A DNA stretch of 64,000 bases from Coriobacteriia bacterium (GTDB lineage Bacteria > Actinomycetota > Coriobacteriia > Anaerosomatales > JAAXUF01), in contig JBBRWO010000003.1 of NCBI GenBank assembly GCA_038249135.1, positions 1,860-65,859 on the forward strand. Direction: 5' to 3'. Shown here in pieces: positions 2,379 through 44,230 of the stretch. The notes below the pieces were generated by a model, which was given only the letters and a program-made list of their open reading frames with translations, searched no databases and had not been told where the DNA came from. A program made the translations under genes and the position numbers. The stretch's first letter is position 1. Every line of letters begins with the position of its first letter.

Positions 2379-3163
2379 CAGCCTTTTCCGCCGCCGCGAT
2401 GTTTGACAAGTCGCACGAGCGTGCCTCCGCCAACGGGCTTCTCGAACTCGACGCGGTCTGTGAGGGCGCGCATGAACGCGACTCCTCGCCCGCTTGGCGC
2501 GTACACATCGCTTGACCGTGACGGCGTGCCATCGAACCCGGTACCGAAGTCGATGATCTCGAGAACGACACGATCGGCGTACGCGATAACCCGCACGTCC
2601 ACGTTCGCCTCACCATCGGCTGGCGATCCGTGACGAACAGCGTTGGCCAAAGCCTCGCCGAGCGCCACCCTCATGTCGAAGACCGCAGATTCCGCGAAGC
2701 CTAATGGCTGAATCAACTGGCAGACCTCTTCGCGCATTGTCCCGAGCCGGTCCACGCTCGCATTCATCTCAAGCTCGCGGCGCCAAAGCTCCTGTGCCGG
2801 CTCACTTGAAAGTCCAAGTCCCTCGAGCGCTCCCTCAACGTTAGGACTCATCGCCAGAGTCGAGGCGACGGTGATAAGGCCGGACAGCTCAAGAATCCGC
2901 GTGATGTCCCGATTCGCGCTCGCAAGTACCATGCGTCCGCCACTGGGGCGCAGTTGATGGTCGAGCCATACCAGAAGCCCGAGCGCCGAACTGTCCGCAT
3001 AGACGACGTCGCTCAGATCGAGAACGAGGTGAGCGCAGCCGCCGTCAATAGCGTTGCCTAGATCCCGGCGCAGTTCCGGAACCATCGCTATGTCGATATC
3101 GCCAGACAGGCGCACCACGCACGACCGAGGGCTGTCATGCTTCTCCAGTTCGAAACTAGACAT
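2378..3163 (-). CDS. fused anti-sigma-factor antagonist (STAS) and RsbW/SpoIIAB-like serine kinase (HATPase_c)
   Basis: From ATG 3163: MSSFELEKH...VRLSGDIDIAMVPELRRDL...DLSDVVYADSSALGLLVWL is a STAS domain with the DSS phospho-serine motif. It is followed by GEALANAVRHG (N-box) and IIDFGTGFD (G1 box). ATG 3163 overlaps the stop of the upstream phosphatase gene (ATGTCTAG). Confidence 0.8.
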   Translation of the reverse strand: MSSFELEKHDSPRSCVVRLSGDIDIAMVPELRRDLGNAIDGGCAHLVLDLSDVVYADSSALGLLVWLDHQLRPSGGRMVLASANRDITRILELSGLITVASTLAMSPNVEGALEGLGLSSEPAQELWRRELEMNASVDRLGTMREEVCQLIQPLGFAESAVFDMRVALGEALANAVRHGSPADGEANVDVRVIAYADRVVLEIIDFGTGFDGTPSRSSDVYAPSGRGVAFMRALTDRVEFEKPVGGGTLVRLVKHRGGGKG

Positions 3164-6100
3164 CCTTGGGGCTACCCACTTCCATCTGGGGCTGCGTAAT
3201 CTCACCGACGCCTTCGCGCACTCGAAGAACCAACACCGCCACATCGTCACGCAGTTCCGAGCGAACGAACCGTCGGACTGACACCAAAAGACGCTGCGCG
3301 ACCTCATCGGCAGTCCCGCCGACCTGTAAGGCAGCATGTACCCGCTTCTCGCCGAAGAACTCGGCTCCACTTCTCGCTTCCGTGACACCGTCGGTATAGA
3401 GCAGCACCATGTCGCCTGGTTTCATCGGTACCACCTGCTCCCCATAGACCACTTCACTCAGCGCGCCGAGAAGCGGACCTGTGGCAGCGAGCGATATGCA
3501 CTCACCGTCGTTGGCCTCCTGGAGAAGGCCCGCCGGATGCCCGCCGCTCGCCCACTTCAGCACGCCACGTCGCGGATCGTAACGGCCGACCCAGAGCGTC
3601 ACGATGTCGCTCGGGTCGCCCGTCTCGGTGACCATGCGGTTGATCTCGCCGAGAATGCGAGCTGGAGAGAACCCGGCCGCCGCAAGCGAGCGAACAGAGT
3701 ACTTGATCATCGACGTCTTGGTCGCAGCAACCACGCCCTTGCCGCACACGTCGGCGATGGCGAACAGTATGCCGCCGTCCGCGCTGCGGAAGAGATCGTA
3801 ATAGTCGCCACCGATCTCAGCGTCACCGCCCGCGGGCGCGTACACGCTTCCCGCTTCAACCTCGTCGAACTCCGGCAGAGCACCGGGAAGAATCGACCGC
3901 TGCAGGATGCTCGCCACCTCGTGCTCGCGGCTGTACAACCGCGCGGTGTCGATTGCGAGCGCGGCCTGCGACGCGAACGTCTGCAACGTGGCCTGATCCT
4001 CTTCGGAGAACGCGCCGACCTCCGCAGAGAAGACCGTCAGTACGCCGATCGACCGTCCACGGGCCAACAGAGGCACAGCGAGGAGCGAGCGCAGGCCATG
4101 AGCGGCCGCGTCTCCGGCGATGCCGCCCATCCCCGCGTGCAGGTCCTTGTACGTCGCAGGAACTCCGGTGGTGAACACGTAACCAGGGATATCATCGGAG
4201 GGCGTGAACACTCGGTCCACCAGGTCGGGCGACACCGCTCCACGAGCCATCGCCGTGGTGATGGTCCGCCGCCGCTGATCATAGGTCATCAACGCCAGTG
4301 CATCCGCCGAGAGAATCTTCTGCACCACATCGAGCACGCGATTGAGAACCACGTTCACCTGGAGAGAAGATCCGACCGCCTGGCTGATTCTGAAGATGGT
4401 CTCCAGGTTGTTAGCGCGTACGACCGCCTGCTCGTACAGGTAAGCATTCTCGAGCGCGAGCGCGAGCTCATTTGCAACTGAAGTAGCAAGTTCCGCATCC
4501 CGACGAGACCCCAGCAACTGCGGCAAAGCAAGACCAAGCACGGCACCATGCAGCTTGTCGAGGGCAACCGGAACGAGCATGAGTCGCTCTGCCCCGGTCT
4601 TGTCGATGAACGCATCGGCAGATGGGTCCTCCCCCCGCTTCACGACCAACGGCCGCACGCTTTCACCTGGTGCAAACCGGCGCAGTGCAAGGTCGAGGAG
4701 GTTTGCATCAAACGAGTGGTCAGCCGCGGGCGGCAGGCCAAGCGCGGAACGGGATGCAAATGCGAAGGTCGCCTCTTTCGCCCCAAACAGATCGGCAACG
4801 ATGAGTTCGATTTCGTGGAGCGTGTCGCTCAGCCCATCAGGACGCGCCAGACGCTCAGCGATTTCACGCAGCCCGTCAGACACCCGACGCGACTCCGTCT
4901 CGATAGCAAACAGCCGCGAATTCTGTACAGCGACGGCCGCCTGCGCCGAGAAGGTCCTGACCATCTCGCGCTCCGCCTGCGAGGTGTCTTGCTCGGATTC
5001 CAGCAGCACAACAACCGCGCCCAGGGTCTCGCGACCCGCGATGAGCGGGGCGACCAACGCGCAGCGACCAGCCTCGCCCAGACCGGGCAGCTCAGAGGCG
5101 ATGCTCTCGGGCCTCGCGGCATACACCACCGGCTCAGAGTCGGTGAGCGCCGTGGCGAGCCATCCATCGGAGTAGGCATCAATCGCCGACACGTAGCCCA
5201 GTTCCACCCCACGCACCCGCACCGGGACAAGCCAGCGGCCGTCACGATCAAGCAGATAGACCGCCGCAGTACCCGGTCCCACGATGTGCCCCATCGCCGA
5301 CAGAATGCCGTCAAGCACCTGGTCCAGTTGCGATGCACTGGCAAGCAGTTGCGAAAGATCGTGCAGGGCGTTGAGTCGAAGCGCTACCGCATTGAACGCC
5401 TTGGCAACCTGCCCGATCTCGTCATCGCGGTCCTCAGAAATCGGCTTGACGTATGAGCCCTTCGCCGCACGATACGCTGCATCTTCCAGATCGCGGAGTG
5501 GTGCCACGAGTCTGCTCGAGATGAGCCATGCTGCAAGCAGTGCAGTGATGCCGCCGACAATCAGGACCAGCAGAGACGGGGCGACCGCGCCAGCGGTTTC
5601 AACCACGCCGACATACCGCGGCTCGAGAATCACGAGCCTCAGATCGACCCCTTCTACACCCCGGATGTCCTTGTAGTGGCCGGCGAGAGGCATGCCTTGC
5701 GCGACGGGAACGGTCACATCTCCAGCGCCCGGCACCTGCGACACCCAAACGGCCCCTCGCATGCGAAGCCCCTTTGTTGCGCCAACGCTGAACAGGGACG
5801 CGCCGTTTTGAAGCACCACGACCACGCGGCCATCCCCAACCCGGGCATTGGCGATGGTCGCCCTGAGGAACGAGGTGTTCACCTTCTCAAGAATCACGAC
5901 CGGTTCACTGCCGCCGAGGAATACAGTTCGAGTCAGCCAGAGTGATCGTGTGCCCGAGGTGTCCACACTCGAGACGAAGCCCGTGGCACCTCGGAGCGCA
6001 GCGCCGTAGGCAGACCGTGCCGCTCGCGGCACCACAGTACGAGTGCCGGGCGCACTTGCGACAACGCGTCCGCGCGTATCCACCACATCAATCTCGGAGA

Positions 6101-6413
6101 TCAGACCGTCAGATGAGTCTCGAAGTATCGAGATTCGCTCAGCTATCACGGCCGCCTCGGTCTGACCCGCAACCGCGTTCGCGACTCGTGATGCGTTGGC
6201 ATCAACAGACTGCAACCGAGACAAGATGGCGTCCTCAGTGGCCTGAAGATATGCCTCATCTCTGGCGGCGATCTGCCGCTGAGCAAGATTCGAGACCCCA
6301 ACGACCGCCACCGTGCCGGAGACGACTACAGTCGCAACTCCGATCAACAGCGTCAGGCTCATGATGCGGCCAGCGAGCCGCCCCGGTCTGCGAGCGATCC
6401 TCGTCATCCGCAC
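3156..6413 (-). CDS. membrane sensor PP2C (SpoIIE/RsbU-type) serine phosphatase with extracytoplasmic domain, HAMP and multiple GAF domains
   Basis: 1085 aa. It has an N-terminal TM helix, a periplasmic-type region of about 240 aa and a second TM helix. Then come HAMP (APLRDLEDAAYRAAKGSY...IGQVAKAFNAV), about three GAF-like blocks and a C-terminal PP2C signature (IGGDYYDLF...FAIADVCGKGVVAA...LLYTDGVTEA). Confidence 0.85.
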   Translation of the reverse strand: MRMTRIARRPGRLAGRIMSLTLLIGVATVVVSGTVAVVGVSNLAQRQIAARDEAYLQATEDAILSRLQSVDANASRVANAVAGQTEAAVIAERISILRDSSDGLISEIDVVDTRGRVVASAPGTRTVVPRAARSAYGAALRGATGFVSSVDTSGTRSLWLTRTVFLGGSEPVVILEKVNTSFLRATIANARVGDGRVVVVLQNGASLFSVGATKGLRMRGAVWVSQVPGAGDVTVPVAQGMPLAGHYKDIRGVEGVDLRLVILEPRYVGVVETAGAVAPSLLVLIVGGITALLAAWLISSRLVAPLRDLEDAAYRAAKGSYVKPISEDRDDEIGQVAKAFNAVALRLNALHDLSQLLASASQLDQVLDGILSAMGHIVGPGTAAVYLLDRDGRWLVPVRVRGVELGYVSAIDAYSDGWLATALTDSEPVVYAARPESIASELPGLGEAGRCALVAPLIAGRETLGAVVVLLESEQDTSQAEREMVRTFSAQAAVAVQNSRLFAIETESRRVSDGLREIAERLARPDGLSDTLHEIELIVADLFGAKEATFAFASRSALGLPPAADHSFDANLLDLALRRFAPGESVRPLVVKRGEDPSADAFIDKTGAERLMLVPVALDKLHGAVLGLALPQLLGSRRDAELATSVANELALALENAYLYEQAVVRANNLETIFRISQAVGSSLQVNVVLNRVLDVVQKILSADALALMTYDQRRRTITTAMARGAVSPDLVDRVFTPSDDIPGYVFTTGVPATYKDLHAGMGGIAGDAAAHGLRSLLAVPLLARGRSIGVLTVFSAEVGAFSEEDQATLQTFASQAALAIDTARLYSREHEVASILQRSILPGALPEFDEVEAGSVYAPAGGDAEIGGDYYDLFRSADGGILFAIADVCGKGVVAATKTSMIKYSVRSLAAAGFSPARILGEINRMVTETGDPSDIVTLWVGRYDPRRGVLKWASGGHPAGLLQEANDGECISLAATGPLLGALSEVVYGEQVVPMKPGDMVLLYTDGVTEARSGAEFFGEKRVHAALQVGGTADEVAQRLLVSVRRFVRSELRDDVAVLVLRVREGVGEITQPQMEVGSPKDV

Positions 6414-6450
6414 CCCCGCCCCTGGTCATCGGTCACCACGTCAATCAAGC

Positions 6451-6479
6451 AGTGCCATCGTACTGCATCGTACGGCACT
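6451..6479 (-). promoter_or_regulatory. hairpin / 8-nt direct repeat between ccdA and the phosphatase gene
   Basis: AGTGCC (6451-6456) and GGCACT (6474-6479) are reverse complements. They flank the direct repeat CATCGTAC-TG-CATCGTAC (6456-6473). The element could be a terminator after ccdA or a regulator site for the next gene. Confidence 0.3.
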
Positions 6480-6495
6480 AGGGCGTGAGCGCGGG

Positions 6496-7215
6496 CTAGA
6501 ACGAGGGCACAGCCGAAGTAAGCCAGTTGGCCAGCACTCCCAGCTGCCCGGTGAAGATAAGTAGTCCGATCGCAACGAGCATCGCGCCGGCGACGCGGTT
6601 CACGATGAGCGAGTGACGGTTGAGCCACGCGAGCAGAGGCTTCACGCGACCGAACAGCAGGGCAACGAGCAGAAACGGTATCCCGAGACCGAGTGAATAC
6701 ACAAGCAGCAGGAGCGCACCATTGGAAACGCTCCCCGTGGCTGCGGCCAACGCGAGAATGGTCCCTAGGATCGGCCCGACACACGGCGTCCAGCCGGCGG
6801 CGAACGCCATCCCCATGACGAGCGATGCGCCCCGCCCGAAGGATCGAGCGCGACCCATGTCGGCACGAGCCTCACCGTACAGGCCGGGAATCTTGATGAA
6901 GCCGAGCATGAAGATGCCAAAGAGCACGACGGCGACTCCGGCAATGCGCTCGACAACCTGTCGATACTCGACAAGGAGCTGTCCAACGACTGAAGCGGAC
7001 GCACCGAGGGCGACGAATACCAGTGAGAACCCGACAACGAAAAGAGCTGCGGGAACGAGGACCTTTGAAGATGACCGCTCAGAGTCCGCGAGCTGTGTCG
7101 TAGTCATCCCTGTCATGAACGACAGATATCCGGGAATCAACGGGAGGACGCACGGAGAGAGAAATGACAACAGCCCTGCGGTGAACGCAGCGACATAGCT
7201 CACGGAACCACTCAC
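6496..7215 (-). CDS. ccdA: cytochrome c biogenesis thiol-disulfide transporter CcdA (DsbD-like membrane core)
   Basis: 239 aa polytopic protein. FLSPCVLPLIPGYLSF and GWTPCVGPILG are the two conserved CcdA/DsbD Cys-Pro motifs. GTG start at 7215 with an AAGGGTGG RBS. Confidence 0.85.
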   Translation of the reverse strand: MSGSVSYVAAFTAGLLSFLSPCVLPLIPGYLSFMTGMTTTQLADSERSSSKVLVPAALFVVGFSLVFVALGASASVVGQLLVEYRQVVERIAGVAVVLFGIFMLGFIKIPGLYGEARADMGRARSFGRGASLVMGMAFAAGWTPCVGPILGTILALAAATGSVSNGALLLLVYSLGLGIPFLLVALLFGRVKPLLAWLNRHSLIVNRVAGAMLVAIGLLIFTGQLGVLANWLTSAVPSF

Positions 7216-7258
7216 GAACTACCACCCTTCAGCAACCAGTACGAACATGGCACTCAAC

Positions 7259-7276
7259 TATACCCCACTGGGTATA
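7259..7276. promoter_or_regulatory. CsoR-type operator-like palindrome upstream of ccdA
   Basis: TATACCCCACTGGGTATA has arms ATACCC/GGGTAT. It closely matches the palindrome in the csoR-CDF intergenic region (14290-14306) and lies 44-61 nt upstream of the ccdA start. Confidence 0.4.
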
Positions 7277-7301
7277 TATTCGCGAGTGCTTCCAGCTGCT
7301 G

Positions 7302-7523
7302 TCAGGCGAGCTGCTCGGCGTCGTACCCTACGCTTCGAATGGCATCTATGATCTGCTCGACAGTGATGACGTCGTCGTCAAAGCGCACAACGGTGTCGCC
7401 GGTCGCGTGATCGGTTCGAACGTCGGCCACTCCTTCGAGCTCGCCAACCGTAAGGTCCACCAGCATCGAGCACGAAGTGCAGTGCAGCCCTGAGGTCACG
7501 AGATTCGCGGTCACTTCACTCAT
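7302..7523 (-). CDS. heavy-metal-associated (HMA) domain metallochaperone-like protein
   Basis: MSEVTANLVTSGLHCTSCSMLVDLTVGELEGVADV... shows the ferredoxin-like HMA pattern with a CxxC (CTSC). ATG 7523 is preferred over 7532 because the GAGGGAG RBS is 9 nt upstream. Confidence 0.8.
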   Translation of the reverse strand: MSEVTANLVTSGLHCTSCSMLVDLTVGELEGVADVRTDHATGDTVVRFDDDVITVEQIIDAIRSVGYDAEQLA

Positions 7524-7851
7524 CAGGTGCATCTCCCTCGGATTTGATGTTCCCGCAGTACGGGCACATGCGCCAATCCTGCATCATCGCGGCGTCGCAG
7601 GAACCACACCGTACCATCACGGGCGCCGAGCGGTCTTCATGATTACGGTGAGATGACAACAGCGCCCAGCTCAACAGCACTACCAGGCCGGTCGCGATGG
7701 CGGGTATAACCCAGCCCAGACCAGCGCCTTGTGGGAGTGCGTAACGGTCAGCGTCGGCGAAAAGGGTAAGCCCCAAGGCCAGCAAGACACCCGTCACAAC
7801 GAGACCCGAGAGAAGGCCTGCTAGTGCGCGTGTCGCCGGACGAGATGTCAC
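7516..7851 (-). CDS. small membrane protein with C-terminal zinc-ribbon (CxxC...CxxC)
   Basis: Two hydrophobic helices are followed by VRCGSCDAAMMQDWRMCPYCG. Start moved to GTG 7851 (AGGGAG RBS 7 nt upstream). The 28 codons upstream in the track ORF are Arg/Pro-rich and contain a sigma-54 promoter match. Confidence 0.6.
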   Translation of the reverse strand: MTSRPATRALAGLLSGLVVTGVLLALGLTLFADADRYALPQGAGLGWVIPAIATGLVVLLSWALLSSHRNHEDRSAPVMVRCGSCDAAMMQDWRMCPYCGNIKSEGDAPDE

Positions 7852-7893
7852 TCGGAAGCTCCCTGGCAGAGGGCATGGACGTAACCGCCGAGG

Positions 7894-7909
7894 TGCAATC
7901 GGTGTGCCA
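7894..7909 (-). promoter_or_regulatory. sigma-54 (-24/-12) promoter
   Basis: The minus strand reads TGGCACACCGATTGCA, an exact match to TGGCAC-N5-TTGCA. It sits in the 94-nt gap between the EBP gene stop (7946) and GTG 7851, in the correct orientation. Confidence 0.65.
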
Positions 7910-7945
7910 ACATCCGCAGAGCGCGCCAGACGCATCTCCGAGAGG

Positions 7946-9295
7946 TCAGAGTCCTAGCCGCTGCATGCGCGCTTCAAGCGTCTTGGCGGTGAGCCCCAGA
8001 AGCTTCGCTGCCTTGGGAACAACGCTCCCCGCGCGGTCAAGCGCCTGCCTCACCAAGTCAAGCTCGACCTCCTCGAGGTCGACCCCGTCTTCCGGTAGCG
8101 TGAATCCGCTGGTCGCACGGTCGAACCCACCCAGTCCGGCACGCACCTCGCCCGGAAGATCGGAAAGCTCTATCTCATCGCCGTGCGACAGAATGATGAT
8201 GCGCTCGATGGTGTTCTCAAGCTCTCGAATGTTCCCTGGCCACTGATAGCGAGCAAGCGCCTCCATGGCCGCGGGCGAAATCCGCTTGGCGCCTGCCTTG
8301 AACTTCTCGAGGAAGTGGGCGACGAGAAGCGGAATGTCCCCGCTGCGGTGACGCAACGGCGGCAGCGTCACCGGAACCACGTTGAGGCGATAGAAGAGAT
8401 CCTCTCGGAAGGCTCCGTCAGCGATCAGTTGCTGGAGGTCCTGGTTCGTGGCGGCGACCACCCGAACGTCGACATCGATACTGCGGGTTCCGCCGAGACG
8501 CTCGAAACTGCGCTCCTGCAAGACTCGAAGCAGCTTGACCTGCGTCGCCGACGAGATGTCGCCGATCTCATCGAGGAACAACGTGCCCCCGTTCGCGAGT
8601 TCGAACCGCCCGGGCTTCGCTGTGACCGCTCCGGTGAACGCGCCCTTCTCGAACCCGAAGAGCTCGCTCTCCAGCAGAGTCTCAGGCAGCGCACCCGCGC
8701 TCACGGACACAAACGGCTTGTTGGCCCGATCAGAAAGGTTGTGGAGAGCGCGCGCGATGAGCTCCTTGCCCGTACCTGACTCGCCGTAGATCATGACCGT
8801 GGCCAGCGTCGGTGCCACCTTCTGCACCGTCTCGAGCACCGCCATCATGCCGGCGTCTGATGCCACGATTCCTTCGACGTCGTACTCACGGTCCAACTCG
8901 CTTCTCAGGCGAACCACCTCAGCGGCGAGTCCCGAGTACGTGAGCGCCTTATCGATGGCGAGCTTGAGCTCTTCGAGGTCGAATGGCTTGGTCAGGTACT
9001 CGCTCGCGCCGGCCTTCATCGCCTCGACGGCCGTCGCCACATTGCCGTGCGCAGTCAGCATGATGATCGGGAACTGAAGGCCTTTACTCCGAACGGTACG
9101 AAGCACCTCCATGCCGTCTTTGCCCGGCATCCGGTGGTCGAGCACCATGACATCGGGCTCCTGGTCCGAGATGATCGAGAGCGCCTCAACGCCGTCGGAC
9201 GCCTCGAGGACCTCGTAGCCATCGCCCGAGAGCGCCTGGCCGAGAACCCATCTCATGTTCTTCTCGTCATCAACAATGAGCACGCGCTTGCCCAT
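7946..9295 (-). CDS. sigma-54-dependent response regulator (NtrC/AtoC family: REC + AAA+ + Fis-type HTH)
   Basis: The receiver domain is VLIVDDE...[13 protein letters not shown]. Walker A is GESGTGKE, the sigma-54 contact loop is [15 protein letters not shown], and the C-terminal HTH is [16 protein letters not shown]. Confidence 0.92.
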
Positions 9296-9306
9296 GTGGG
9301 TCCCCT

Positions 9307-10842
9307 TTACTCGTCCAGTGCCGCCGGCAAGGTCACGTTGAATACCGTGCCATCCGGAGAACTCTCTACTTCGATTCTACCTTCGTGCTCGTCAATGATC
9401 CTGTGAACTATCGTCAGGCCAAGTCCGGTGCCTTCGGCCCGCTTGGTGGAGAACGGGTCGAACACCTTAGGTAGATCCTCCGGCGCGATTCCCGGGCCAC
9501 TGTCGGCTACCGACACTTGTACGTACTCACCGCTCGCGCGAGTGGCGATGATAATGGTTCCGCCGTCGTCACCCATCGCTTGCACGGCGTTGGTGACCAG
9601 ATTCAGAAACACTTGCTTGAGCTGATCGGGGTCGCCATCAACGAGCGGGAGGTCGTCGGCGAGCCGTTGCTCGATTCGGACGTCGGACTGACGCGCGAAC
9701 CGAGTAGTGAAGAGTACTACGTCCTGCAAAAGCTCGTTGAGGTCAGCACGGACCAGCGTGGGTTTGCTGGGTCGGCCGAAGTCCAACAACGCCTTGATGA
9801 CCTTGTCCAGTCGATCGATCTCTTGCTTGATGACCTCTGCCGCGTCGTGAATGCGCGCCGCGTCGCATTGCGCATCCTCGAGCAGTTGTACGCTGGCTCT
9901 GATGACCCCAAGCGGGTTGCGGACCTCGTGCGCAACGCCGGCGGTCAACTCGCCCATGGCAGCAAGACGGTCCGCCCGAATGAGCTGATCGGTCAACGCC
10001 TTTATGTCTGAGACGTCTTCGAGTGTCACGACAGCCCCAAGCACTGTGCCACCGACGGCACGCATCCGCGACGTCGAAGATTGCACGTGAACCTCACGTC
10101 CTGAAGACGTGGTCAGCGTTCCCTCGCGTAGCGCCAGAGGTAGCCGACCCGCCAAGACCTTGTCGACATCGCCGGAAATTCCACCGTCTTCGCGAAACAG
10201 GAGCGAGATCGGCCGAGGGACCATCTCGAACTCGGACATGCCGAGCATCCGCTCCGCAGCAGGGTTGGCCGTGGTCACAGAACCATCCGGGCCCACCGTA
10301 AGCACCCCCGAGGTAATCGATCTGAGAATCGACTGGGTGTAATCCTGGATGTTGATGAGCTGGATCGCCCGCTCTTCGAGCTTCTTGTACGCCTCCTCGA
10401 GCTGCAAAGAGAGCTGACGCAAGTCGCGCGTCTTGTTCTCCTCTGTGTCGCGAAGCGCACCGAACAGCACGCCCACCGCGATAAACGATGCAACCTCCAG
10501 GACGCTGGCAAAGCCGGTGCTCATCGGAAGACCCAGGGTGGTTCGAGAATGGATCGCAAACGGCAGCGAGGCGGCAAGCGCGACGGCGAAGCCACCCCGA
10601 CGACCGAAAACGTACGCCGCGTAGATGATAGGAACGTAGTAGAGCCGCTGGTACAGGAGGTGCATCTGCGCACTTCCAACCCCTGACCCGGCCAGAAGGT
10701 GCAGTGCCGAGACTCCGATCAGCATCACGACGATGATCAGCGTCGCACGAACCTCGCGCGCCCTCTGCGCGTCGGCCATGGCGGGTGCGCCTTCGGTCGC
10801 GAGCTGCGGTCGCTTCGGCAGCCCGGCGCGCTCCCCTGTCAT
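9307..10842 (-). CDS. membrane sensor histidine kinase (multi-TM N-terminus, PAS, HisKA, HATPase_c)
   Basis: H-box [17 protein letters not shown]-box [12 protein letters not shown]-box DSGPGI...GTGLGL. ATG 10842 overlaps the rpoN stop as ATGA. Confidence 0.88.
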
Positions 10843-12239
10843 CTGCGGCGCCTCGCCCAAGACGGCTCGATGTGCAGTTCCTCGCGATACTTCGCTACCG
10901 TACGCCGCGCCACGGTAACGCCCTCGTCGGACAGCATCTCAGCGAGTCGCTGATCCGAGAGCGGCTTGGCGACATCTTCCGCCAGCACGAGTTCGCGCAA
11001 CCGCTGCTTGATACTGGTGGCGGCCACGTCCATGCCACTCGTCGTCCGGTATCCGCCGCTGAAGAAGTGCTTGAGCTCGAAGAGGCCATAGGGCGTGGCC
11101 ATGTATTTGCCGGTTACCCCGCGGGAGACGGTCGACAGGTGTACGCCGATCTCCACGGCGACGTCCTCGAGTCGCAGCGGACGCAACAGCCCGTGCCCGT
11201 CCTCGAAGAACTCGAACTGCACCTCGAGGATGATCTGCGTGATCCGCGTGACCGTGTCCTTGCGCCGATCGACGTTCTTGATGAAACTCTCCGCCGAGCG
11301 GATCTTGTCCTTCAGGTACTTGCGTGTCTCGTCATCTGCCGAGGAACCGCTGCGCAGCATCGACCGATACCGCGGGGACACGCGCAACGTGGGAATCGCT
11401 TCGTTGTTCGAGGTGATGACCCACTCATCGTCGAAGCGACGAATCGTCACGTCCGGCACGATGTAGCCCGGCGAAGGTCCGGGAGAAAACGCTCCGGCCG
11501 GTCTGGGGTTGAGGACTTTGAGAATCTCAACCAGTCGCCGGACCTCGGCCTCATCGACCTTCAGCGCTCGCGCGACCTTGCGATAGTGGTTGGCGGCAAC
11601 ATCATCGAGATGCTCGCGCACGATGACGAGCAGCAACGGCTCCTCGATGTCGAGTGACTCGAGCTGAAGACGCAACGCTTCTGCGAGGTCGCGCGCGCCA
11701 ACCCCCGGCGGATCGAGTTGCTGAACCGCGCGAAGTCCCTCCTCGGCCTCGGCGAGGGTAACGTCAACGAGTTTCGCGACTTCCTCGAGCGAGCCGACAA
11801 AAAATCCGTCCTTGTCGAGCGACCCGACCACGGCCTTCGCCGCATTCTCGACATCCTCGGTGACGTCAAGCAAGGAAAGCTGCTCGAGCAGATAGTCGTC
11901 GAACGACTGAACGCCGCCGACAAAGTCCTCAGTGTTGGTCTGCTCGGCGTTAGGGTCGCGGGGCGCACTCTGGTCGGTGGTGTCGAGATCCTCATACATC
12001 TCGAGCCACTCGTCCCACGAACGCTCGTCGACCGGCTCCTCAGGAGCCTCTTCACCCTCAGCGGGCTCACTGTCGGTCTCGTCAACCTCGAGGACCGGGT
12101 TCTCGAGCATCTCGACTTCGATCATCTGCTGAAGCTCTGTAACGGGCATGGCGAGTATGGCCAGTCCCTGATACACCTGCGGGGACAGCGTCACTTTCTG
12201 GCGAAGGTCTGATCGCTGCGAGAGTTCCAAAGTACTCAC
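10839..12239 (-). CDS. rpoN: RNA polymerase sigma-54 factor
   Basis: 466 aa with a Gln/Leu-rich region I, an acidic region II and the C-terminal RpoN box ARRTVAKYREEL. Confidence 0.93.
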   Translation of the reverse strand: MSTLELSQRSDLRQKVTLSPQVYQGLAILAMPVTELQQMIEVEMLENPVLEVDETDSEPAEGEEAPEEPVDERSWDEWLEMYEDLDTTDQSAPRDPNAEQTNTEDFVGGVQSFDDYLLEQLSLLDVTEDVENAAKAVVGSLDKDGFFVGSLEEVAKLVDVTLAEAEEGLRAVQQLDPPGVGARDLAEALRLQLESLDIEEPLLLVIVREHLDDVAANHYRKVARALKVDEAEVRRLVEILKVLNPRPAGAFSPGPSPGYIVPDVTIRRFDDEWVITSNNEAIPTLRVSPRYRSMLRSGSSADDETRKYLKDKIRSAESFIKNVDRRKDTVTRITQIILEVQFEFFEDGHGLLRPLRLEDVAVEIGVHLSTVSRGVTGKYMATPYGLFELKHFFSGGYRTTSGMDVAATSIKQRLRELVLAEDVAKPLSDQRLAEMLSDEGVTVARRTVAKYREELHIEPSWARRRR

Positions 12240-12277
12240 CCCCGGTGAGTAGGCCGCTCAATGGCGTCGGCGGAGCT

Positions 12278-12293
12278 TGCAAAAAGTATACCA
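12278..12293 (-). promoter_or_regulatory. sigma-54 (-24/-12) promoter upstream of rpoN
   Basis: The minus strand reads TGGTATACTTTTTGCA, with GG-N10-GC spacing and a full TTGCA -12 box. It lies about 40 nt upstream of the rpoN start, just downstream of the hairpin that follows the EamA gene. Confidence 0.55.
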
Positions 12294-12342
12294 CCGTGAG
12301 CTTTCCCCTGGCCGCGAGGGGCTGCGAGGATTGTGTGTGGAA

Positions 12343-13365
12343 TCACTCCTGTGGCGGCAGGATGGGCACCGGCTGCCGCTCGGGCAGCTGGACCACCGCG
12401 ATCGCTGCGATGACGAGTGCTCCGCCCAGGATCTGTACCGGGCTCAGCGCCGTGCCGAACAGGAAGTACGCGCCGATAGCCGCCAGCACCGGCTCAACGG
12501 TCGACGTCACCGTCGCGTTGGTGGGCGCGATGTGGCGCAACGCGGTCAGGAAGGCCGCGAAGGGAACAATCGTGCTCACCACGGCGATGAACAGAACAGC
12601 AACGGCCGTCTTCACATCCAGAAGGAGCGAGAGAACCGGCTTCACACCAAGCACCGCGAACCAGAACACACTCGCGAACGCGAGCCCCCAGACCAGTGTC
12701 GTATACGGCGGATAACGGCGAGCCGCGACCGAACCCATCAGGGAGTATGCCGCGAAGAACACCGCCGAAAGCAGTCCCCAGAGCACTCCCGTGGGCGGGA
12801 TGGAGAGACCGTCGCCGCCTATGGCGCCGACCACCAACGCACACCCGAGAACCGACAGCGCGACGCCGACAGGTAGTGCCCATGTCAGCTTGTGTCGCAG
12901 GAAGAGCACACTGAACGCGAGCACCAGTACCGGGGCGAGATATTCAAGCAGAATCGCGGTCGCGGGATCGTGTGTGATCGAGATGGTCTTGAAGTACGTG
13001 TAGTGGACCATGGCCAATCCGGCAACTCCGAACACCGCGAAGAACGGCACTTCGCGCAGTTCTATTCGCAAGTCGCGACGGCGAAAGACAGCCAAGTACG
13101 CCGCCAGCAGTACAAACGCGCTGAATGCGCGGGCGCCGGACAGCACGGTCGGCTCGACCACCATGCCGAGCGGGGCGACCAGCCACGCATTCGTGGCAAG
13201 CGACGGCGTAGTGAACAGCCAATCAGCTGTCAAACCTCCGGTCGCCCAGCAGGCAGCCGCCAGCAAAGCCAACAGATACCCCCGGAGCGCCGACTGTTTG
13301 AGAGGGCCCGCCTTACGCGCCTGAGCCACGGGACTCCTCGGCGGTCTTGGCCTTCTGATAGTCAT
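12343..13365 (-). CDS. EamA/DMT-family transporter
   Basis: About 10 hydrophobic helices in two repeated halves, typical of EamA. The start is uncertain because the longest ORF overlaps the 3' end of the CDF gene. Confidence 0.8.
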   Translation of the reverse strand: MTIRRPRPPRSPVAQARKAGPLKQSALRGYLLALLAAACWATGGLTADWLFTTPSLATNAWLVAPLGMVVEPTVLSGARAFSAFVLLAAYLAVFRRRDLRIELREVPFFAVFGVAGLAMVHYTYFKTISITHDPATAILLEYLAPVLVLAFSVLFLRHKLTWALPVGVALSVLGCALVVGAIGGDGLSIPPTGVLWGLLSAVFFAAYSLMGSVAARRYPPYTTLVWGLAFASVFWFAVLGVKPVLSLLLDVKTAVAVLFIAVVSTIVPFAAFLTALRHIAPTNATVTSTVEPVLAAIGAYFLFGTALSPVQILGGALVIAAIAVVQLPERQPVPILPPQE

Positions 13366-14257
13366 CGTAAGGCTCGAGGTGGGCGATCACGTCGACGATC
13401 TGCTGATACTGCTCGGCAAGGGTGAGCTCCACCTCTTCTGCGATGTCGTGCCCCTCCGCGACGGTGGCCTCGGGGTCGACCTGCACGTGTAGATCCACAT
13501 ACACCTCGGCCTCAGAACCACGCGTTCGGATGTGATGGCAGCCCAAGACACCGGGAACCGAGATCGCGACCGCGCAGATATCGTCGGCTGGTATGCGCAT
13601 GGAGTCCGAGAGGGTCGCACTGGCATGACGGAACACTCCCCATGCGGTGTACACGATCGCGCACGTCACCAGCAAAGCGACAATCGGGTCGGCCAGGGGG
13701 AAGCCAAGCTTCACCAACACGAGGCTGACGATGACTCCGATGCTGACGAGTGCGTCAGATCCGGTGTGGCTTGCGTCGGCGACCAGGATCGAACTGCCCA
13801 GTCTGTGACCGACCCGGCGTTCCCAGAACGTGACGCCTAGATTGACAGCAAGCGTGCCGAGCATGACCACAAAGGACATGGCGGTGACCGTCGGGGGCTC
13901 ACCGCCACTCCTGAGTCCGGCAATGGCCTCGCTGCCGATTCGATACGCAGCAAACAGGAGCATCGCACCGATGACCGCGGATGCGTAGGTCTCGTACTTG
14001 CCATGCCCGTACGGGTGGTCCTCGTCGGCAGGACGACCGGCAAAGCCCATACCGACGAGGCCAACGACATTGCTCGCTCCGTCGAACAGGGAGTGAAAAC
14101 CGTCAGCCTGCATTGCGGTAGAGCCGCTGATCGTTCCCCACACGAGCTTAGCCAATGCGACAGCGACGTTCAGGAACAGAATTATCCAGAGAATCCGCTT
14201 GATCTCGCGGATTCTGCCCTCACCAGCCGCTGCGTTTGCTGGTCGTGTGTAGCCCAC
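13313..14257 (-). CDS. cation diffusion facilitator (CDF) divalent-metal efflux transporter
   Basis: HxxxD motifs are present in TM2 (FHSLFD) and TM5 (SHTGSD), with a C-terminal cytoplasmic domain. Start moved to GTG 14257 (GGAGGGGGA RBS) because the longer ORF would read through the operator palindrome. Confidence 0.85.
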   Translation of the reverse strand: MGYTRPANAAAGEGRIREIKRILWIILFLNVAVALAKLVWGTISGSTAMQADGFHSLFDGASNVVGLVGMGFAGRPADEDHPYGHGKYETYASAVIGAMLLFAAYRIGSEAIAGLRSGGEPPTVTAMSFVVMLGTLAVNLGVTFWERRVGHRLGSSILVADASHTGSDALVSIGVIVSLVLVKLGFPLADPIVALLVTCAIVYTAWGVFRHASATLSDSMRIPADDICAVAISVPGVLGCHHIRTRGSEAEVYVDLHVQVDPEATVAEGHDIAEEVELTLAEQYQQIVDVIAHLEPYDDYQKAKTAEESRGSGA

Positions 14258-14289
14258 GCTTCCCCCTCCGTGATACTGGCTTGCTGTGA

Positions 14290-14306
14290 ATACCCCTAGG
14301 GGGTAT
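14290..14306. promoter_or_regulatory. CsoR-family operator palindrome in the divergent CDF/csoR intergenic region
   Basis: ATACCCCTAGGGGGTAT has 7-bp arms ATACCCC/GGGGTAT. It lies 33 nt from the CDF start and 51 nt from the csoR-like start. A weaker second site, GTACCCGAGGGGAC, is at 14333-14346. Confidence 0.55.
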
Positions 14307-14356
14307 AGTGTCTGCGTAAGAGAGAGCATACCGTACCCGAGGGGACTGGGCTAACC

Positions 14357-14653
14357 ATGACCGAGATCAATGCGTTGATCGCCGATGAGGCCGAGCGGAC
14401 AAAGATCATCAACAGGCTTCGCCGACTCGAAGGTCAGATCCGTGGGCTGCAAACGATGATCGAATCGGGCAAAGAATGCGACGCCGTACTCACGCAGGTG
14501 ATGGCTGCGAAGTCGGCACTGAACCAAGTGGGACTGCACATCATCGGCCACTCAATGAAGCGTTGTCTGATCGACGATAGCGCAGAGACCCGTGATGAGG
14601 TCATCGACCAGGCGATAGCTACCTTCCTCAAGTACTCGAACTGCGTCAAGTAG
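14357..14653 (+). CDS. CsoR/RcnR-family metal-sensing transcriptional repressor
   Basis: 98 aa. INRLRRLEGQIRGLQTMIE...ECDAVLTQVMAAKSAL...HIIGHSMKRC is the DUF156 helical-bundle pattern with its Cys/His ligands. Confidence 0.88.
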   Translation: MTEINALIADEAERTKIINRLRRLEGQIRGLQTMIESGKECDAVLTQVMAAKSALNQVGLHIIGHSMKRCLIDDSAETRDEVIDQAIATFLKYSNCVK

Positions 14654-15912: not shown

Positions 15913-16635
15913 CTACTTCGCCTTACAGCGCTCCCAGTTCCACGATTGCATCCGACGAATCTGCGGATAGCGAACTGCGTAGCGCAGCGCCACCGACAGG
16001 CCGCCTCGGGCTGCTTCTGCACGGGTCTCGAGATTGTCGATGCTGGTTCGCAGGTCCTCGACGCTCGTGCCACGAAAGACCGTGTAGCCCTTGCCGATCG
16101 CCTTGCACACATGGGCGTCTGAGCCGCCGGTCGCGGCGATACCCTGCCCACCGGCAAACGCCTGAGCGGCAAGCTTGTTGGCATAGATGAGGTACGGCGA
16201 AGAGTTGTAGACCTCGAGCGCTTTGAACGCCAGATCGTTGATTGCTCCGCCGACACTGTTCAGCCCAAAAGGTCCGAACGCCTGATTGGCGAACGGGTGT
16301 GCGATAACCGCGACGCCGCCCTGCTCCTCGATCGCGCGGATGGTGTCTGCAGCCGACATGCCTGCAGGCACGTCCTCCTGGAGGAACAGCCCGAGAATGT
16401 GGCCGGCCTTCGACGAGACTTCTTCGCCAATGACGACCTCGAAGTCGTAAAGCTCCGAGAGCGACTTCGCGAAGAGCGCTCCCTCGATGGTGTTGTGGTC
16501 GGTGATCGCGATGACGTTGAGGTCGGTGTGGTTCTGCACGTACTCCATGATCTCGGGAATCTTCGCCAGACCGTCGCTGTGGTCTGAATGAATGTGCAGA
16601 TCAGCCTTGCCCCATAGTTCGGCTTGTGTGCTCAC
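15913..16635 (-). CDS. PHP-domain metal-dependent phosphoesterase
   Basis: ADLHIHSDHSDG...VIAITDHNTIEGA...AHPF...GGSDAH are the PHP His/Asp motifs. GTG start at 16635. Confidence 0.8.
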   Translation of the reverse strand: MSTQAELWGKADLHIHSDHSDGLAKIPEIMEYVQNHTDLNVIAITDHNTIEGALFAKSLSELYDFEVVIGEEVSSKAGHILGLFLQEDVPAGMSAADTIRAIEEQGGVAVIAHPFANQAFGPFGLNSVGGAINDLAFKALEVYNSSPYLIYANKLAAQAFAGGQGIAATGGSDAHVCKAIGKGYTVFRGTSVEDLRTSIDNLETRAEAARGGLSVALRYAVRYPQIRRMQSWNWERCKAK

Positions 16636-16700: not shown

Positions 16701-16716
16701 AGCAAGGCGCGAACCA
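16701..16716 (-). promoter_or_regulatory. sigma-54 (-24/-12) promoter upstream of the PHP gene
   Basis: The minus strand reads TGGTTCGCGCCTTGCT, with GG-N10-GC spacing and a TTGCT -12 box. It is in the 203-nt intergenic region, about 65 nt upstream of GTG 16635. Confidence 0.5.
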
Positions 16717-37400: not shown

Positions 37401-37585
37401 GGCGCGAGCGCCTCGTAAGACGCCATCGGGACCTCGCCTCGCTCGACCGCGCGTGCGATCTGATCAAGAAAGTAGTCGATGCGTCCGAGTTCGTTCTGCT
37501 CTGCGAGATGCGGCCGCACGTCCCCCACGGGAACCCCCTCGTTCGACAGTGGAATGCGAGTACAGGATACCCTGCCGCGGCTCAC
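34493..37585 (-). CDS. large polytopic membrane protein of unknown function (about 1030 aa, more than 20 hydrophobic segments)
   Basis: A soluble N-terminal region of about 130 aa is followed by near-continuous Ala/Leu/Gly/Val-rich TM-like segments to the C-terminus. I recognise no catalytic motif. GTG 37585 overlaps the uvrC stop (GTGA). Confidence 0.7.
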   Translation of the reverse strand: MSRGRVSCTRIPLSNEGVPVGDVRPHLAEQNELGRIDYFLDQIARAVERGEVPMASYEALAPRYLARREDLIVIITGAYRPPAVAETSPRIPGTASPAGDYASRGAVPGPAVTQTVSQMPARVREPISWTTVLLFLGAFLVIVASGIFAFAVWSSTGPGLRLAFLGALTAVFYAAGHYARTKLDLRAGSVALTVVASAMLLFDCWIVIDGWRLEGPFPWAVALLVCSAVYWLTEVRLGDRFYGIAGAAAQVGWWWLMAAGLHLENPVRLAGIAVIALLWQLVAERAHDDDSFASLAQVLLWAAPVVSVGAAMGIAADALAVGTSSLVSAASAATVTLAGAGVVLRSTLLQRDNARWIAGAIQLPLFVMLLQPGMPSWLGVGCLVLVTAMYTLIALRRAGTPFAIAALGMELLAATSALELLHATDPVGVAVLAGLAVTWTLASVLADRLTNGLADGFVDHSASSASVIETSGVLRVGGNAGLVLSSILVPLVGAGVPLTAIAVPSADVMLAAWVLVAWALSCLIRRGPFAAFGSALWSLYAAAALCAWLLPDLSSPMYALVLLGVTAAWLAVRARVERFYRAPAEAFGWTMRGIAIALLVGGVVAESFRANPSSGSMAALALGFSAVFTVDAVLAGPQASAAIAAAGGVLAAGLAGFAFRELPGDAGLAATAAGAVLALVGVALRDRWTPKAQWFAVAAAGAATTAAAMGATDWPLCGSLALASLAWVGAAFSTREQWLSFAAALVGFAAVVAGVSAIGPSSWVTIIVLGVAAGGLGLPSALGVTGRDGRLARVGQAVALAGLVGVGFLVALSIAGEAATGLMFEPPSWTEFGRQGVALCFTIAAAYVITQSHLWKVEAVSYVGWALLLVAACVEFSAWDVTTFQVYTTAVAAYLAAMGYLYASRAFERTVPVALDIATVAVGVGMPALIALTAPMGAAGFSDLVWAVGLALVAIAAGVILKVRAYLFGAAGALVVVVGWRSFTYLASVWWLVLGLVGTAMLVIALTWERQRQMLSQTQRRLRDGFEHWR

Positions 37586-39453: not shown

Positions 39454-42399
<2,946 letters not shown>

Positions 42400-43844: not shown

Positions 43845-43864
43845 CGCGAGCATCAACCACATGA

Positions 43865-44230
<366 letters not shown>

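Follow-up and report, generated by a model that had tools for sequence, protein, structure and literature searches.

The sigma-54 system of an actinobacterium of the order Anaerosomatales is probably built as a self-amplifying unit, in which rpoN, a membrane histidine kinase and an NtrC-type activator would be transcribed together from a promoter that sigma-54 itself recognizes. We base this suggestion on a stretch of 64,000 nucleotides (the window) and on its comparison with a syntenic locus of ~20 kb that is common to all 80 best genome matches, every one of them metagenome-assembled. [quoted passage not shown] The comparison lends support to this proposal, both through the operon and through the conservation of the promoter before rpoN (P1).

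The operon and its host lineage

The open reading frames, coordinates and couplings of the sigma-54 module are as that reading gave them (Table 1). The rpoN stop codon (TGA 10841-10839) lies inside an ATGA whose ATG, at 10842, begins the kinase gene, and 11 nt separate the end of the kinase gene (9307) from the activator ATG (9295). Such a close, translationally coupled unit of three genes is seen well beyond the window, as their order and spacing are kept in 80/80 related loci. The extended order EamA-rpoN-kinase-activator is likewise present in 80/80, and the EamA gene is scored as syntenic in 73/80. Some details have to be changed. The start of rpoN had been placed at GTG 12239; TTG 12230 (463 aa) is more likely, because a ribosome binding site, GGGGGTGA, precedes it and most orthologues (462-464 aa) start there. 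The supposed hairpin behind the EamA gene has no folding advantage over shuffled sequence (z = -0.29), and no terminator-like site was found after that gene.

RpoN passes the equivalog model TIGR02395 (410.7 bits, cutoff 277) and aligns over its full length to E. coli sigma-54, with an intact region I and an identical RpoN box (ARRTVAKYRE). The AAA+ domain of the activator has the GAFTGA motif (as EKGAFTGA) and the Walker motifs, and neither the window nor any of the loci has a second gene of this type. AtoC is the best named match of the activator; the best NCBIfam match of the kinase is AtoS, under the cutoff of that model. The kinase orthologue of the sister lineage has a faint DUF4118 match on record.

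Table 1. Features of the rpoN neighbourhood (positions in the window)
Feature	Position	Strand	Description
CsoR/RcnR-type operator-like palindrome	7261..7274	.	joined to a -10 box; precedes ccdA
CopZ-like heavy-metal-associated protein	7305..7523	-	72 aa; Pfam HMA 1.5e-12; second gene of P2 unit
ZnR, small membrane zinc-ribbon protein	7516..7851	-	111 aa from GTG 7851; first gene after P2
P2, TGGCACACCGATTGCA	7894..7909	-	exact consensus match; 36 nt after activator stop; predicted TSS near 7883
NtrC-type enhancer-binding protein	7946..9295	-	Pfam Response_reg, Sigma54_activat (3.1e-70), HTH_8
Membrane histidine kinase	9307..10842	-	~4 TM helices, PAS, HisKA, HATPase_c
rpoN (sigma-54)	10839..12239	-	Pfam Sigma54_AID, Sigma54_CBD, Sigma54_DBD; 466 aa from GTG 12239
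P1, TGGTATACTTTTTGCA	12278..12293	-	GG 12292-12291, GC 12280-12279; predicted TSS near 12267
Extended -10, TG-n-TATACT	12285..12293	-	overlaps P1 -24 box; candidate basal promoter, predicted TSS near 12278
EamA-family transporter gene	12343..13365	-	Pfam EamA 2.4e-33; directly upstream of module, context only
PHP-domain metallohydrolase gene	15913..16635	-	240 aa; Pfam PHP and PHP_C; predicted P3 target
P3, TGGTTCGCGCCTTGCT	16701..16716	-	65 nt before PHP gene start; predicted TSS near 16690

The source organism belongs to the Anaerosomatales (OPB41; Coriobacteriia, Actinomycetota). The related loci come from metagenome-assembled genomes (MAGs) labelled Coriobacteriia, Anaerosomatales or Actinomycetota, UBA2279 (namesake; family Anaerosomataceae) among them. 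These labels bear out the earlier view of the genome as actinobacterial, and the actinobacterial housekeeping synteny is confirmed by uvrA, uvrC, rapZ, yvcK, whiA, gap, pgk, tpiA, glnD, rpsA, coaE and uvrB.

It might be argued that the contig is not actinobacterial at all, or that the module is a recent island, brought in by misbinning or by horizontal transfer from a Firmicutes or Gram-negative donor. Several MAG records are indeed labelled 'uncultured Eubacteriales bacterium', and the nearest RpoN sequences from outside the clade include some in Firmicutes-type and LPS-type contexts. We nevertheless find such an origin barely conceivable. The window joins the module to whiA-gap-pgk-tpiA, rapZ-yvcK, uvrABC and rpsA-coaE, the contigs reach 2.5 Mb (L014), and both the 20-kb synteny and the co-divergence of the module with its flanking genes are consistent: RpoN identity tracks flanking-gene identity with r = 0.76-0.86. 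GC content is uniform, and no compositional break was found at the module. RpoN identity is 67% for an in-clade representative and then at most 44% for all else. Beyond the clade and the related actinobacterial lineage, no RpoN is above 44%. Judged by these comparisons, the operon is ancient and vertically inherited within Anaerosomatales. In the sister lineage the rpoN-kinase-activator coupling, overlapping codons included, is kept at 43% RpoN identity, and its retention at such a distance speaks for a dedicated partnership.

Promoters of the locus

The -24/-12 element that had been seen before rpoN, TGGTATACTTTTTGCA (12293->12278), is located 38 nt upstream of GTG 12239 and reads as a clear phylogenetic footprint. 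Its box is found in 76/77 informative loci with a variable spacer and variable flanks; the core positions are invariant and the flanks carry ~0.1 bit. Strict matches to TGGYAY-N5-TTGCW number two in the 64-kb window (P1 and P2) against 0.04 expected, and all 137 of the 137 strict matches in 1.44 Mb of loci are P1 or P2. With a relaxed pattern, P1, P2 and P3 alone recur at syntenic positions. P2 has a perfect TGGCAY-N5-TTGCA in 65/68 loci, its spacer being highly variable, and GG-N10-GC plus TTGC, mostly as CGGTAC or CGGCAC-N5-TTGCT, stands upstream of the PHP gene in 67/69. The -24 box of P3 is weakened (TGGTTC) in the window's own clade. There are, then, three conserved -24/-12 promoters within 10 kb where the sequence-only reading had noticed a single one, P2 and P3 having escaped it. 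Its description of the module as self-contained can be kept in part: the unit is coupled and sits behind its own promoter, but it is not closed, since no fewer than two other conserved targets lie close by.

Sigma-54 and its activator cannot prime such a loop unaided, and the need for a basal promoter, which had been pointed out before, is answered by a candidate specific to P1. Counting any hexamer with at least 5/6 matches to TATAAT within -20..+5 of the -24 box, a -10 hexamer is present at P1 in 60/77 loci, at P2 in 1/66, at P3 in 1/67 and at 1% of random positions. It shifts to offset -11 (11 nt upstream) in those loci whose P1 -24 box is TGGTAC. One locus, L047, has no -24/-12 box at P1 yet retains GATAAT, and in the sister actinobacterial lineage rpoN is preceded by a -10 promoter alone (TGGTAGAAT or TGATACAAT). 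It seems that the P1 -24/-12 box arose on top of an extended -10 promoter that was there before it.

Could the P1 motif be just an extended -10 SigA promoter (TGnTAnnnT), with the TTGC an unrelated operator or a product of chance, and rpoN not under its own control? The sequence TGGTATACT does read as a good extended -10, and L047 and the sister lineage manage with a promoter of this type before rpoN. We think this very improbable, since TTGCW follows TGGTAY at exactly 5 nt in 76/77 loci and this spacing is unchanged in loci with the -10 hexamer displaced 11 nt upstream and a box reading TGGTACG. A strict match would arise by chance in a 200-nt region with a probability of ~4e-4 (calculated from the pattern), and two further genes of the locus have this bipartite motif in front of them.

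Another possibility is that sigma-54 at P1 acts mainly as a brake, its closed complex over the -10 hexamer repressing the SigA promoter. Such negative autoregulation would hold the level of sigma-54 steady, and the activator would make P1 fire little or not at all. Because the hexamer lies in the -24 box or not more than 11 nt from it in those 60/77 loci, two holoenzymes must compete at P1. Moreover, inverted-repeat enumeration, synonymous-site conservation, k-mer enrichment and within-genome word sharing revealed no upstream activator site at P1, nor at P2 or P3. There is also a precedent, as the single-copy rpoN of Rhizobium leguminosarum is negatively autoregulated according to work cited in PMC3538637. 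We nevertheless regard a predominant brake as unlikely. P1 has the same full-strength consensus as the gene-driving P2 and P3 (TTGCW, a preceding T tract, the right distance to the gene), a mere occluding site would need no such exact -12 element, and a transcript that holds both sensor and activator suits amplification. Both modes may coexist: the -10 hexamer falls under the footprint of sigma-54, which would therefore probably dampen the basal promoter as well while the activator is off.

Target genes and a putative circuit

The ZnR gene follows P2 in 65/66 loci and starts 36-50 nt past the -12 box. Its product has two TM helices and then a C-terminal C-x2-CG-x7-WR-x-CP-x-CG, which stays under the cutoff of Pfam Zn_ribbon_3. 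The homologue in the sister lineage has a perfect -24/-12 box and adjoins a cupredoxin gene, 5-7 kb from the operon. The CopZ-like gene, syntenic in 63 loci, overlaps the ZnR gene by 8 nt (ATGAGTGA), its ATG lying 2 nt ahead of the stop codon of ZnR; the best NCBIfam matches of its product are CopZ models, all under cutoff. Downstream, ATACCCC-N2-4-GGGGTAT is conserved in front of ccdA in many loci, and this palindrome probably marks the end of the P2 unit. In six loci a cluster of DsbD_2-cupredoxin, CopZ, cupredoxin and CopA genes stands between the ZnR gene and ccdA, and no CsoR-type operator of its own was found for it. The PHP protein behind P3 scores 97 bits against the NCBIfam CehA/McbA family metallohydrolase domain (cutoff 80).

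If these assignments are correct, the circuit could work as follows. The SigA-type -10 at or abutting the P1 -24 box would give low constitutive transcription of the operon and so prime the loop. Sigma-54 holoenzyme would then wait at P1, P2 and P3 as a closed complex until, on a signal, the kinase phosphorylated the receiver domain of the activator. This signal would most likely be copper, a thiophilic metal like it, or the resulting membrane or thiol stress; the link to copper comes from the gene neighbourhood (CopZ-like, cupredoxin, CopA), in which the HMA protein falls under the CopZ cutoffs. The activator would assemble and, spending ATP through its GAFTGA loop, open the three complexes. 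Firing of P1 would raise sigma factor, sensor and activator together, and P2 and P3 would be the output. That the same activator serves all three promoters is an assumption, made because of their proximity and because this is the sole activator in ~75 kb of unique sequence (the window and one syntenic 20-kb region).

On the same material the module could instead be one of many sigma-54 circuits in a cell that has a number of activators and an extensive regulon, rpoN standing beside one two-component system by chance. This is a serious possibility, to which we give somewhat less credit than to its opposite. Several activators are the rule in bacteria with sigma-54 (PMC3162934), and ~75 kb is too little to estimate the size of a regulon. 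What argues against it is the concentration of three conserved promoters within 10 kb of rpoN, with one activator gene seen, and the overlapping-codon coupling that is kept even at 43% RpoN identity. The operon seems to govern a small number of metal-related genes nearby.

Relation to known systems and to the phylum

The two-component operon ZraPSR is read from its own sigma-54 promoter and is in this way autoregulated (PMC12316311). Like ZraPSR of E. coli and Salmonella, which responds to zinc and envelope stress, the system described here combines a membrane kinase with an NtrC-type REC-AAA+-HTH activator, an adjacent sigma-54 promoter for a small accessory envelope protein and a connection to metals. 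Unlike there, the putatively autoregulated operon begins with rpoN. The kinase scores 218 against a ZraS cutoff of 479 and the activator 385 against a ZraR cutoff of 760; the accessory protein has two membrane helices, a cytoplasmic zinc ribbon and no ZraP/CpxP-type match, and the neighbours (CopZ, cupredoxin, CopA) point to copper instead of zinc.

There are other examples of rpoN behind a sigma-54 promoter of its own with a second source for priming. Rhodobacter capsulatus reads the rpoN of its nifU2-rpoN superoperon from a promoter that needs both sigma-54 and an activator, and priming comes from a weak second promoter or another sigma-54 source. The same arrangement and the same priming are described for prxS-rpoN2 in Rhizobium etli and Mesorhizobium loti (PMC3538637). 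Those, however, are second, specialised rpoN copies with NifA encoded elsewhere, and they are primed in part from rpoN1. Here the candidate priming promoter overlaps the -24 box, activator and kinase are in the rpoN transcript, and there is no nif context.

Borrelia and Chlamydia have a single activator (PMC3162934). Hk2-Rrp2-RpoN and the AtoS/AtoC-like CtcB-CtcC resemble the present system, whose kinase and activator also have AtoS and AtoC as best named matches, in having one two-component system, one activator and very few promoters (here, in ~75 kb scanned). In neither genus is rpoN known to have a -24/-12 promoter of its own or to lie in the two-component operon. Both are host-restricted diderms with reduced genomes, whereas the Anaerosomatales are free-living high-GC monoderms.

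Autoregulated ECF sigma operons are similar in placing a sigma gene and its signal partners behind a self-read promoter with a small local regulon. Protein family and mechanism are unrelated, as sigma-54 complexes are opened by an ATP-driven activator and not by release of an anti-sigma factor. CopRS/CusRS offer a possible functional analogy, a membrane kinase controlling copper chaperone or export genes; their regulators are of the OmpR type and act at sigma-70 promoters, and the copper signal proposed here derives from gene neighbourhood.

Papers from 2011 and 2025 describe the phylum as one without sigma-54 (PMC3162934; PMC12316311), just as the sequence-only reading had said. We found no papers discussing the sigma-54 genes of Anaerosomatales, to which databases already give gene names. 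To go by the loci compared, sigma-54 is universal in Anaerosomatales, a trait of the lineage rather than a peculiarity of a single genome. A conserved sigma-54 operon thus extends across a whole order of a phylum that is said in the literature to lack this sigma factor.

The sigma factor, its operon and three predicted promoters

RpoN has the three regions of a sigma-54: the activator-interacting region I, the core-binding domain and the DNA-binding domain. Each spans the full Pfam profile (PF00309, 1.3e-11; PF04963, 3e-53; PF04552, 1.2e-54), and the protein passes the NCBIfam equivalog model TIGR02395 with 410.7 bits against a cutoff of 277.35. Its alignment to E. coli sigma-54 (8f1i_M; E = 6.4e-79) covers the full length, and the RpoN box, ARRTVAKYRE, is identical there. 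The RpoN box (ARRTVAKYR) is the part of sigma-54 that recognises the -24 element. The activator has Response_reg (4.6e-33), Sigma54_activat (3.1e-70) and HTH_8 (1.7e-08) domains in Pfam, and its translation displays the GAFTGA loop and the Walker A and B motifs, including LFLDEIGD. Its NCBIfam scores fall below the cutoffs for named orthologues (AtoC 490 against 714, NtrC 447 against 559, ZraR 385 against 760). Judged by its domains and scores, it is an NtrC-family (group I) enhancer-binding protein without a named orthologue.

The sequence-only reading had described rpoN, kinase and activator as one unit with an ATGA overlap and an 11-nt gap, and coordinates, Pfam domains and TIGR02395 all agree with this. 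It had also called the module self-contained, behind a -24/-12 promoter of its own. The sequence that it gave for this promoter, TGGTATACTTTTTGCA, is present at 12293->12278 (P1), and the promoter stands. The word self-contained does not, since two further predicted promoters of this type, neither of them seen in that reading, have to be added: P2, before the zinc-ribbon gene, and P3, before the PHP gene.

Coordinates of the sigma-54 module, its predicted promoters and neighbouring features (positions in the window unless a sister-lineage contig, L085 or L087, is named)
Feature	Position	Strand	Remarks
P1	12293->12278	minus	TGGTATACTTTTTGCA; predicted promoter before rpoN
P2	7909->7894	minus	TGGCACACCGATTGCA; predicted promoter 36 nt past activator stop
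P3	16716->16701	minus	TGGTTCGCGCCTTGCT; predicted promoter; PHP-domain gene starts 65 nt downstream
EamA-family transporter gene	13365..12343	minus	first in gene order; 103-nt gap to rpoN
rpoN	12239..10839	minus	stop overlapped by kinase ATG in ATGA
Histidine kinase gene	ATG 10842	minus	Pfam PAS-HisKA-HATPase_c
Activator gene	9295..7946	minus	begins 11 nt past kinase gene
Zinc-ribbon gene	GTG 7851 to 7516	minus	111 aa; first gene after P2
HMA gene	7523..7305	minus	72 aa; best match CopZ; codons overlap zinc-ribbon gene
Operator-like palindromes	7261-7274; 14291-14305		ATACCCC-N2-4-GGGGTAT
Sister-lineage operon and zinc-ribbon/cupredoxin region	L085 1750-2764; L087 2709-3703, 9830-14183		

The 64-kb window contains two matches to the strict pattern TGGYAY-N5-TTGCW, where 0.04 are expected; P3 was detected there through a match with one mismatch. 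A scan for RpoN with one genome per species gave 151 relatives, and promoters were counted in the loci of the best 80 of them (65-97% identity), P1 wherever the upstream sequence is present (77 loci). P1 is kept in 76 of these 77, 72 times perfectly and four times with CGG at its start, while its spacers differ (ACTTT, ATAGT, GTTGT, GAGGT and others) and its flanks hold about 0.1 bit. At P2 a perfect TGGCAY-N5-TTGCA with an almost random spacer is found in 65 of 68 loci. P3 has GG-N10-GC and TTGC in 67 of 69 cases, usually as CGGTAC or CGGCAC-N5-TTGCT. Every one of the 137 strict matches in 1.44 Mb of loci is either P1 or P2, and with the relaxed pattern only P1, P2 and P3 recur in synteny. 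Calculated from the pattern, the chance of a strict match is about 4e-4 per 200-nt region. Sites so improbable argue that P1, P2 and P3 are real and under selection, and their GG-N10-GC form makes them the predicted cognate promoters of RpoN.

The remaining one-mismatch and relaxed matches in the window were rejected as intragenic; among them are matches without the GG or the GC and matches due to a conserved peptide. One match, TGGCACCAACCCTGCT at 26806->26791 (minus), is spaced correctly between GG and GC and reads CTGCT at the -12 box. It lies inside the end of the iPGM gene, with an opp operon downstream on the same strand whose oligopeptide-binding-protein gene is about 500 nt further on; this locus is outside the fetched loci.

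A SigA-type hexamer within P1 and other upstream signals

The -24 box is always TGGTAY at P1 (the four sites beginning with CGG aside) and always TGGCAY at P2, apparently because P1 also accommodates a SigA-type -10 hexamer. When such a hexamer is defined by at least five of six matches to TATAAT, with A2 and T6 fixed, within -20 to +5 of the -24 box, it is found at P1 in 60 of 77 loci, at P2 in 1 of 66, at P3 in 1 of 67 and at 1% of random positions (loci again from the best 80 of 151). If the box reads TGGTAT, the hexamer overlaps it and has TG in front, as in the extended -10 of the window (TG-G-TATACT, 12293..12285, minus). If it reads TGGTAC, there is a separate TATAAT or CATAAT 11 nt upstream. 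Similar-looking -10 boxes are fused to the CsoR-type operators of the lineage. A search for a classical -35/-10 promoter or a terminator in window positions 7200-12500 found none.

An rpoN gene behind its own sigma-54 promoter would still need some basal transcription, as the sequence-only reading had pointed out. The hexamer specific to P1 supplies a candidate: it appears to be a basal, priming SigA promoter of the extended -10 type. Since the footprint of sigma-54 must cover the hexamer, sigma-54 bound at P1 may also damp this overlapping promoter. One Anaerosomatales locus, L047 (9900-10010), is the only one without a -24/-12 box before rpoN, and it has retained GATAAT. This locus could serve as a natural test of the idea of two promoters.

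Four methods of looking for activator binding sites near the target promoters gave no shared or conserved one. When the inverted repeats upstream of P1 and P2 were listed, a single palindrome recurred, GAGGTCGAGCTCGACCTC. It encodes EVELDL and its third codon positions are unconserved, so it was rejected as a coding coincidence. Over the final 110 codons of the EamA and activator genes, synonymous sites contain no constrained run, k-mer enrichment returned words encoding the activator HTH and nothing else, and 8-10-mers common to P1 and P2 are shared within genomes to the same extent as across them. A motif AAYCTCCRC stands between the EamA stop and P1 in 12 of 77 loci and is subclade-specific (the window variant is CACACAATCCTCGCAG, 12320-12340, minus). 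Since P2 lacks it upstream, it does not qualify as an activator site common to both. The motif holds an anti-Shine-Dalgarno-like core, CCTCC.

The hairpin that had been thought to end the EamA gene is not supported (folding z = -0.29 against shuffles), and a hairpin in the rpoN leader is not significant (z = -0.99). GC-rich stem-loops of 7-10 bp do occur directly 3' of the -12 box of P1 in several loci (L006, L010, L016, L029, L031, L040 and others) with differing sequences. As a set they fold no better than shuffles (mean z about 0), and a conserved leader hairpin was rejected. No Rfam family matched in window positions 6000-14500.

Predicted target genes, metals and the sister lineage

A small gene begins 36-50 nt past P2 in 65 of 66 cases. 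It encodes a protein with two membrane helices and, at the C-terminus, a zinc ribbon (C-x2-CG-x7-WR-x-CP-x-CG), which the positive-inside rule would place on the cytoplasmic side. A search with this protein returned close relatives only, all without names. Further downstream, before ccdA, a palindrome resembling a CsoR/RcnR-type operator, ATACCCC-N2-4-GGGGTAT, continues directly as a -10 box (GGGTATAAT or GGGTATACT). This operator and -10 box suggest that the P2 unit in the window is probably just two genes, zinc-ribbon and HMA. Of 81 sequences (the window and the 80 loci, best of 151), 75 conserve the palindrome, in as many as three positions: in front of ccdA, where the CDF cation-efflux gene begins, and at another site still further upstream. 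Six loci have a copper cluster inserted after the zinc-ribbon gene, consisting of a DsbD_2-cupredoxin fusion, CopZ, a cupredoxin and a CopA ATPase, without an operator of its own. P3 is predicted to drive the gene downstream of it, which encodes a PHP metallohydrolase with a CehA/McbA-type domain.

Metal genes surround the module: the CDF transporter, with the same operator, the HMA gene and ccdA. From such a neighbourhood we infer that the system responds to copper or to a related metal stress.

Downstream of ccdA, window positions 1260-6413 (minus) encode a 1085-aa dCache-HAMP-GAF-GAF-SpoIIE phosphatase, a fused STAS and anti-sigma-type kinase protein, and an MGDG-synthase-like glycosyltransferase. 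In most loci the phosphatase and the STAS/kinase fusion are syntenic, and the pair resembles a partner-switching module.

Outside the clade, the closest RpoN proteins are 43-44% identical, and their own nearest relatives are Anaerosomatales proteins. A member of this sister lineage, RJQ54984.1, is labelled Actinomycetota bacterium. On the sister-lineage contigs rpoN, kinase and activator again have overlapping stop and start codons, and upstream of rpoN there is an extended -10 only (TGGTAGAAT or TGATACAAT); a third contig, of 70.7% GC, has TATACT and then TGGCACGTAGCGTGCT there. The zinc-ribbon homologue adjoins a cupredoxin gene 5-7 kb from the operon and has a perfect -24/-12 box, TGGCACACTTCTTGCT in L085 and the sole match in 21 kb in L087. 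Since this box is shared with the sister lineage, the comparison marks the zinc-ribbon operon as an old, core sigma-54 target. With a -10 alone before rpoN in that lineage, the -24/-12 box through which P1 would activate itself seems to have been added later, on top of a -10 promoter that was already there.

Inheritance, known systems and meaning

Anaerosomatales is an order of the Coriobacteriia in the Actinomycetota. It was formerly OPB41, and its family Anaerosomataceae corresponds to UBA2279 of GTDB (PMC9686372); a MAG named UBA2279 is among the loci (L078). The best 80 of the 151 relatives are all metagenome-assembled, some on contigs of up to 2.5 Mb, and most are labelled Coriobacteriia, Anaerosomatales or Actinomycetota. 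Looking up the RpoN and activator of the window as exact sequences gave no contig on record. Among the relatives, others carry the title 'uncultured Eubacteriales bacterium' (L001, L006, L008, L009, L012, L015, L016, L020, L026, L029, L034 and more). These match MAGs labelled Coriobacteriia in the whole 20-kb synteny and in RpoN (73-97% identity), and by this comparison the title looks wrong.

Recent horizontal transfer and misbinning were considered as explanations. The gene order is kept across loci: aminotransferase, PHP, a cbiX-like gene on the opposite strand, CDF transporter, EamA, rpoN, kinase, activator, zinc-ribbon, HMA, ccdA, SpoIIE-type phosphatase and STAS/kinase fusion. RpoN and the flanking genes diverge from the window together (their identities correlate with r = 0.76-0.86), and composition does not break across the window. 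Clustering at 50% identity leaves the clade one full-length representative in the library, at 67%, and the next best protein is at 44%. On synteny, co-divergence, composition and this gap in identity both explanations were rejected. Housekeeping genes lie alongside (uvrA, uvrC, rapZ, yvcK, whiA, gap, pgk, tpiA, glnD, rpsA, coaE and uvrB), which puts the module in the core chromosome. On this genomic evidence it is inherited vertically from the ancestor of the order and is not a recent island. In other near relatives outside the clade rpoN lies in an lptC-lptB-rpoN-hpf or rpoN-cggR-gap context.

Two long minus-strand ORFs of the window have no Pfam match at 1e-5: one of 1030 aa between uvrC and rapZ (34493-37585) and one of 526 aa (42309-43889). 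The latter may be false, lying opposite the ammonium transporter gene that the sequence-only reading placed there.

Two known systems invite comparison. Like ZraPSR, this one has a two-component operon and an adjacent small accessory gene, each behind a predicted sigma-54 promoter (P1 and P2). Kinase and regulator are not orthologous to those of ZraPSR (ZraS 218 against a cutoff of 479, ZraR 385 against 760), and the accessory protein matches no ZraP/CpxP-type family. With rhizobial prxS-rpoN2 it shares a -24/-12 promoter upstream of an rpoN-containing operon (P1, 76 of 77 loci); the prxS-rpoN2 type has a NifA activator site and a second, housekeeping copy of rpoN, and there are no nif genes in the window. 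What we describe is a known kind of system in a new form, in a phylum said to be without sigma-54.

That statement, made in the sequence-only reading, is found in the literature. Francke et al. (2011) report the sigma-54 system as absent from Actinobacteria (PMC3162934), and a 2025 survey finds Actinomycetota without functional sigma-54, reviews agreeing, and suggests that sigma-54 promoters cannot be used there because of the high GC content (PMC12316311). The description of Anaerosomatales is silent on sigma factors, and searches pairing sigma-54 or rpoN with Coriobacteriia found nothing relevant. Since the NCBI pipeline already annotates these proteins as sigma-54, the genes are in the databases and not in the literature searchable here. 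As a whole, the earlier finding is real and its interpretation holds; P2, P3, the candidate priming promoter and the evolutionary context are additions to it.

In a whole order with 58-70% GC, sigma-54 is intact, its activator is retained and the promoters are sharply defined, which contradicts both the claim of absence from the phylum and the argument from GC content. The layout is unusual: sigma factor, sensor and activator are on one transcript behind a composite promoter that appears, from its overlapping elements, to be read by two different sigma factors. This offers a compact natural model of an activator-dependent sigma factor that starts and amplifies its own synthesis. Cultured members of Anaerosomatales exist (PMC9686372), so the predictions are directly testable.

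A broader suggestion can be made, though we hold it to be rather doubtful. In Anaerosomatales and the sister lineage sigma-54 might have been reduced to a private, signal-specific factor, with a single rpoN, one kinase and one activator on one self-activating transcript, and serving a few nearby copper or envelope-stress promoters. The P1 box would then have been laid over the ancestral extended -10, sharing with it the bases TGGTA. If correct, this would be an ECF-like use of sigma-54, and two unrelated sigma factors would read the same few bases of DNA, the first to prime the loop and the second to amplify it.
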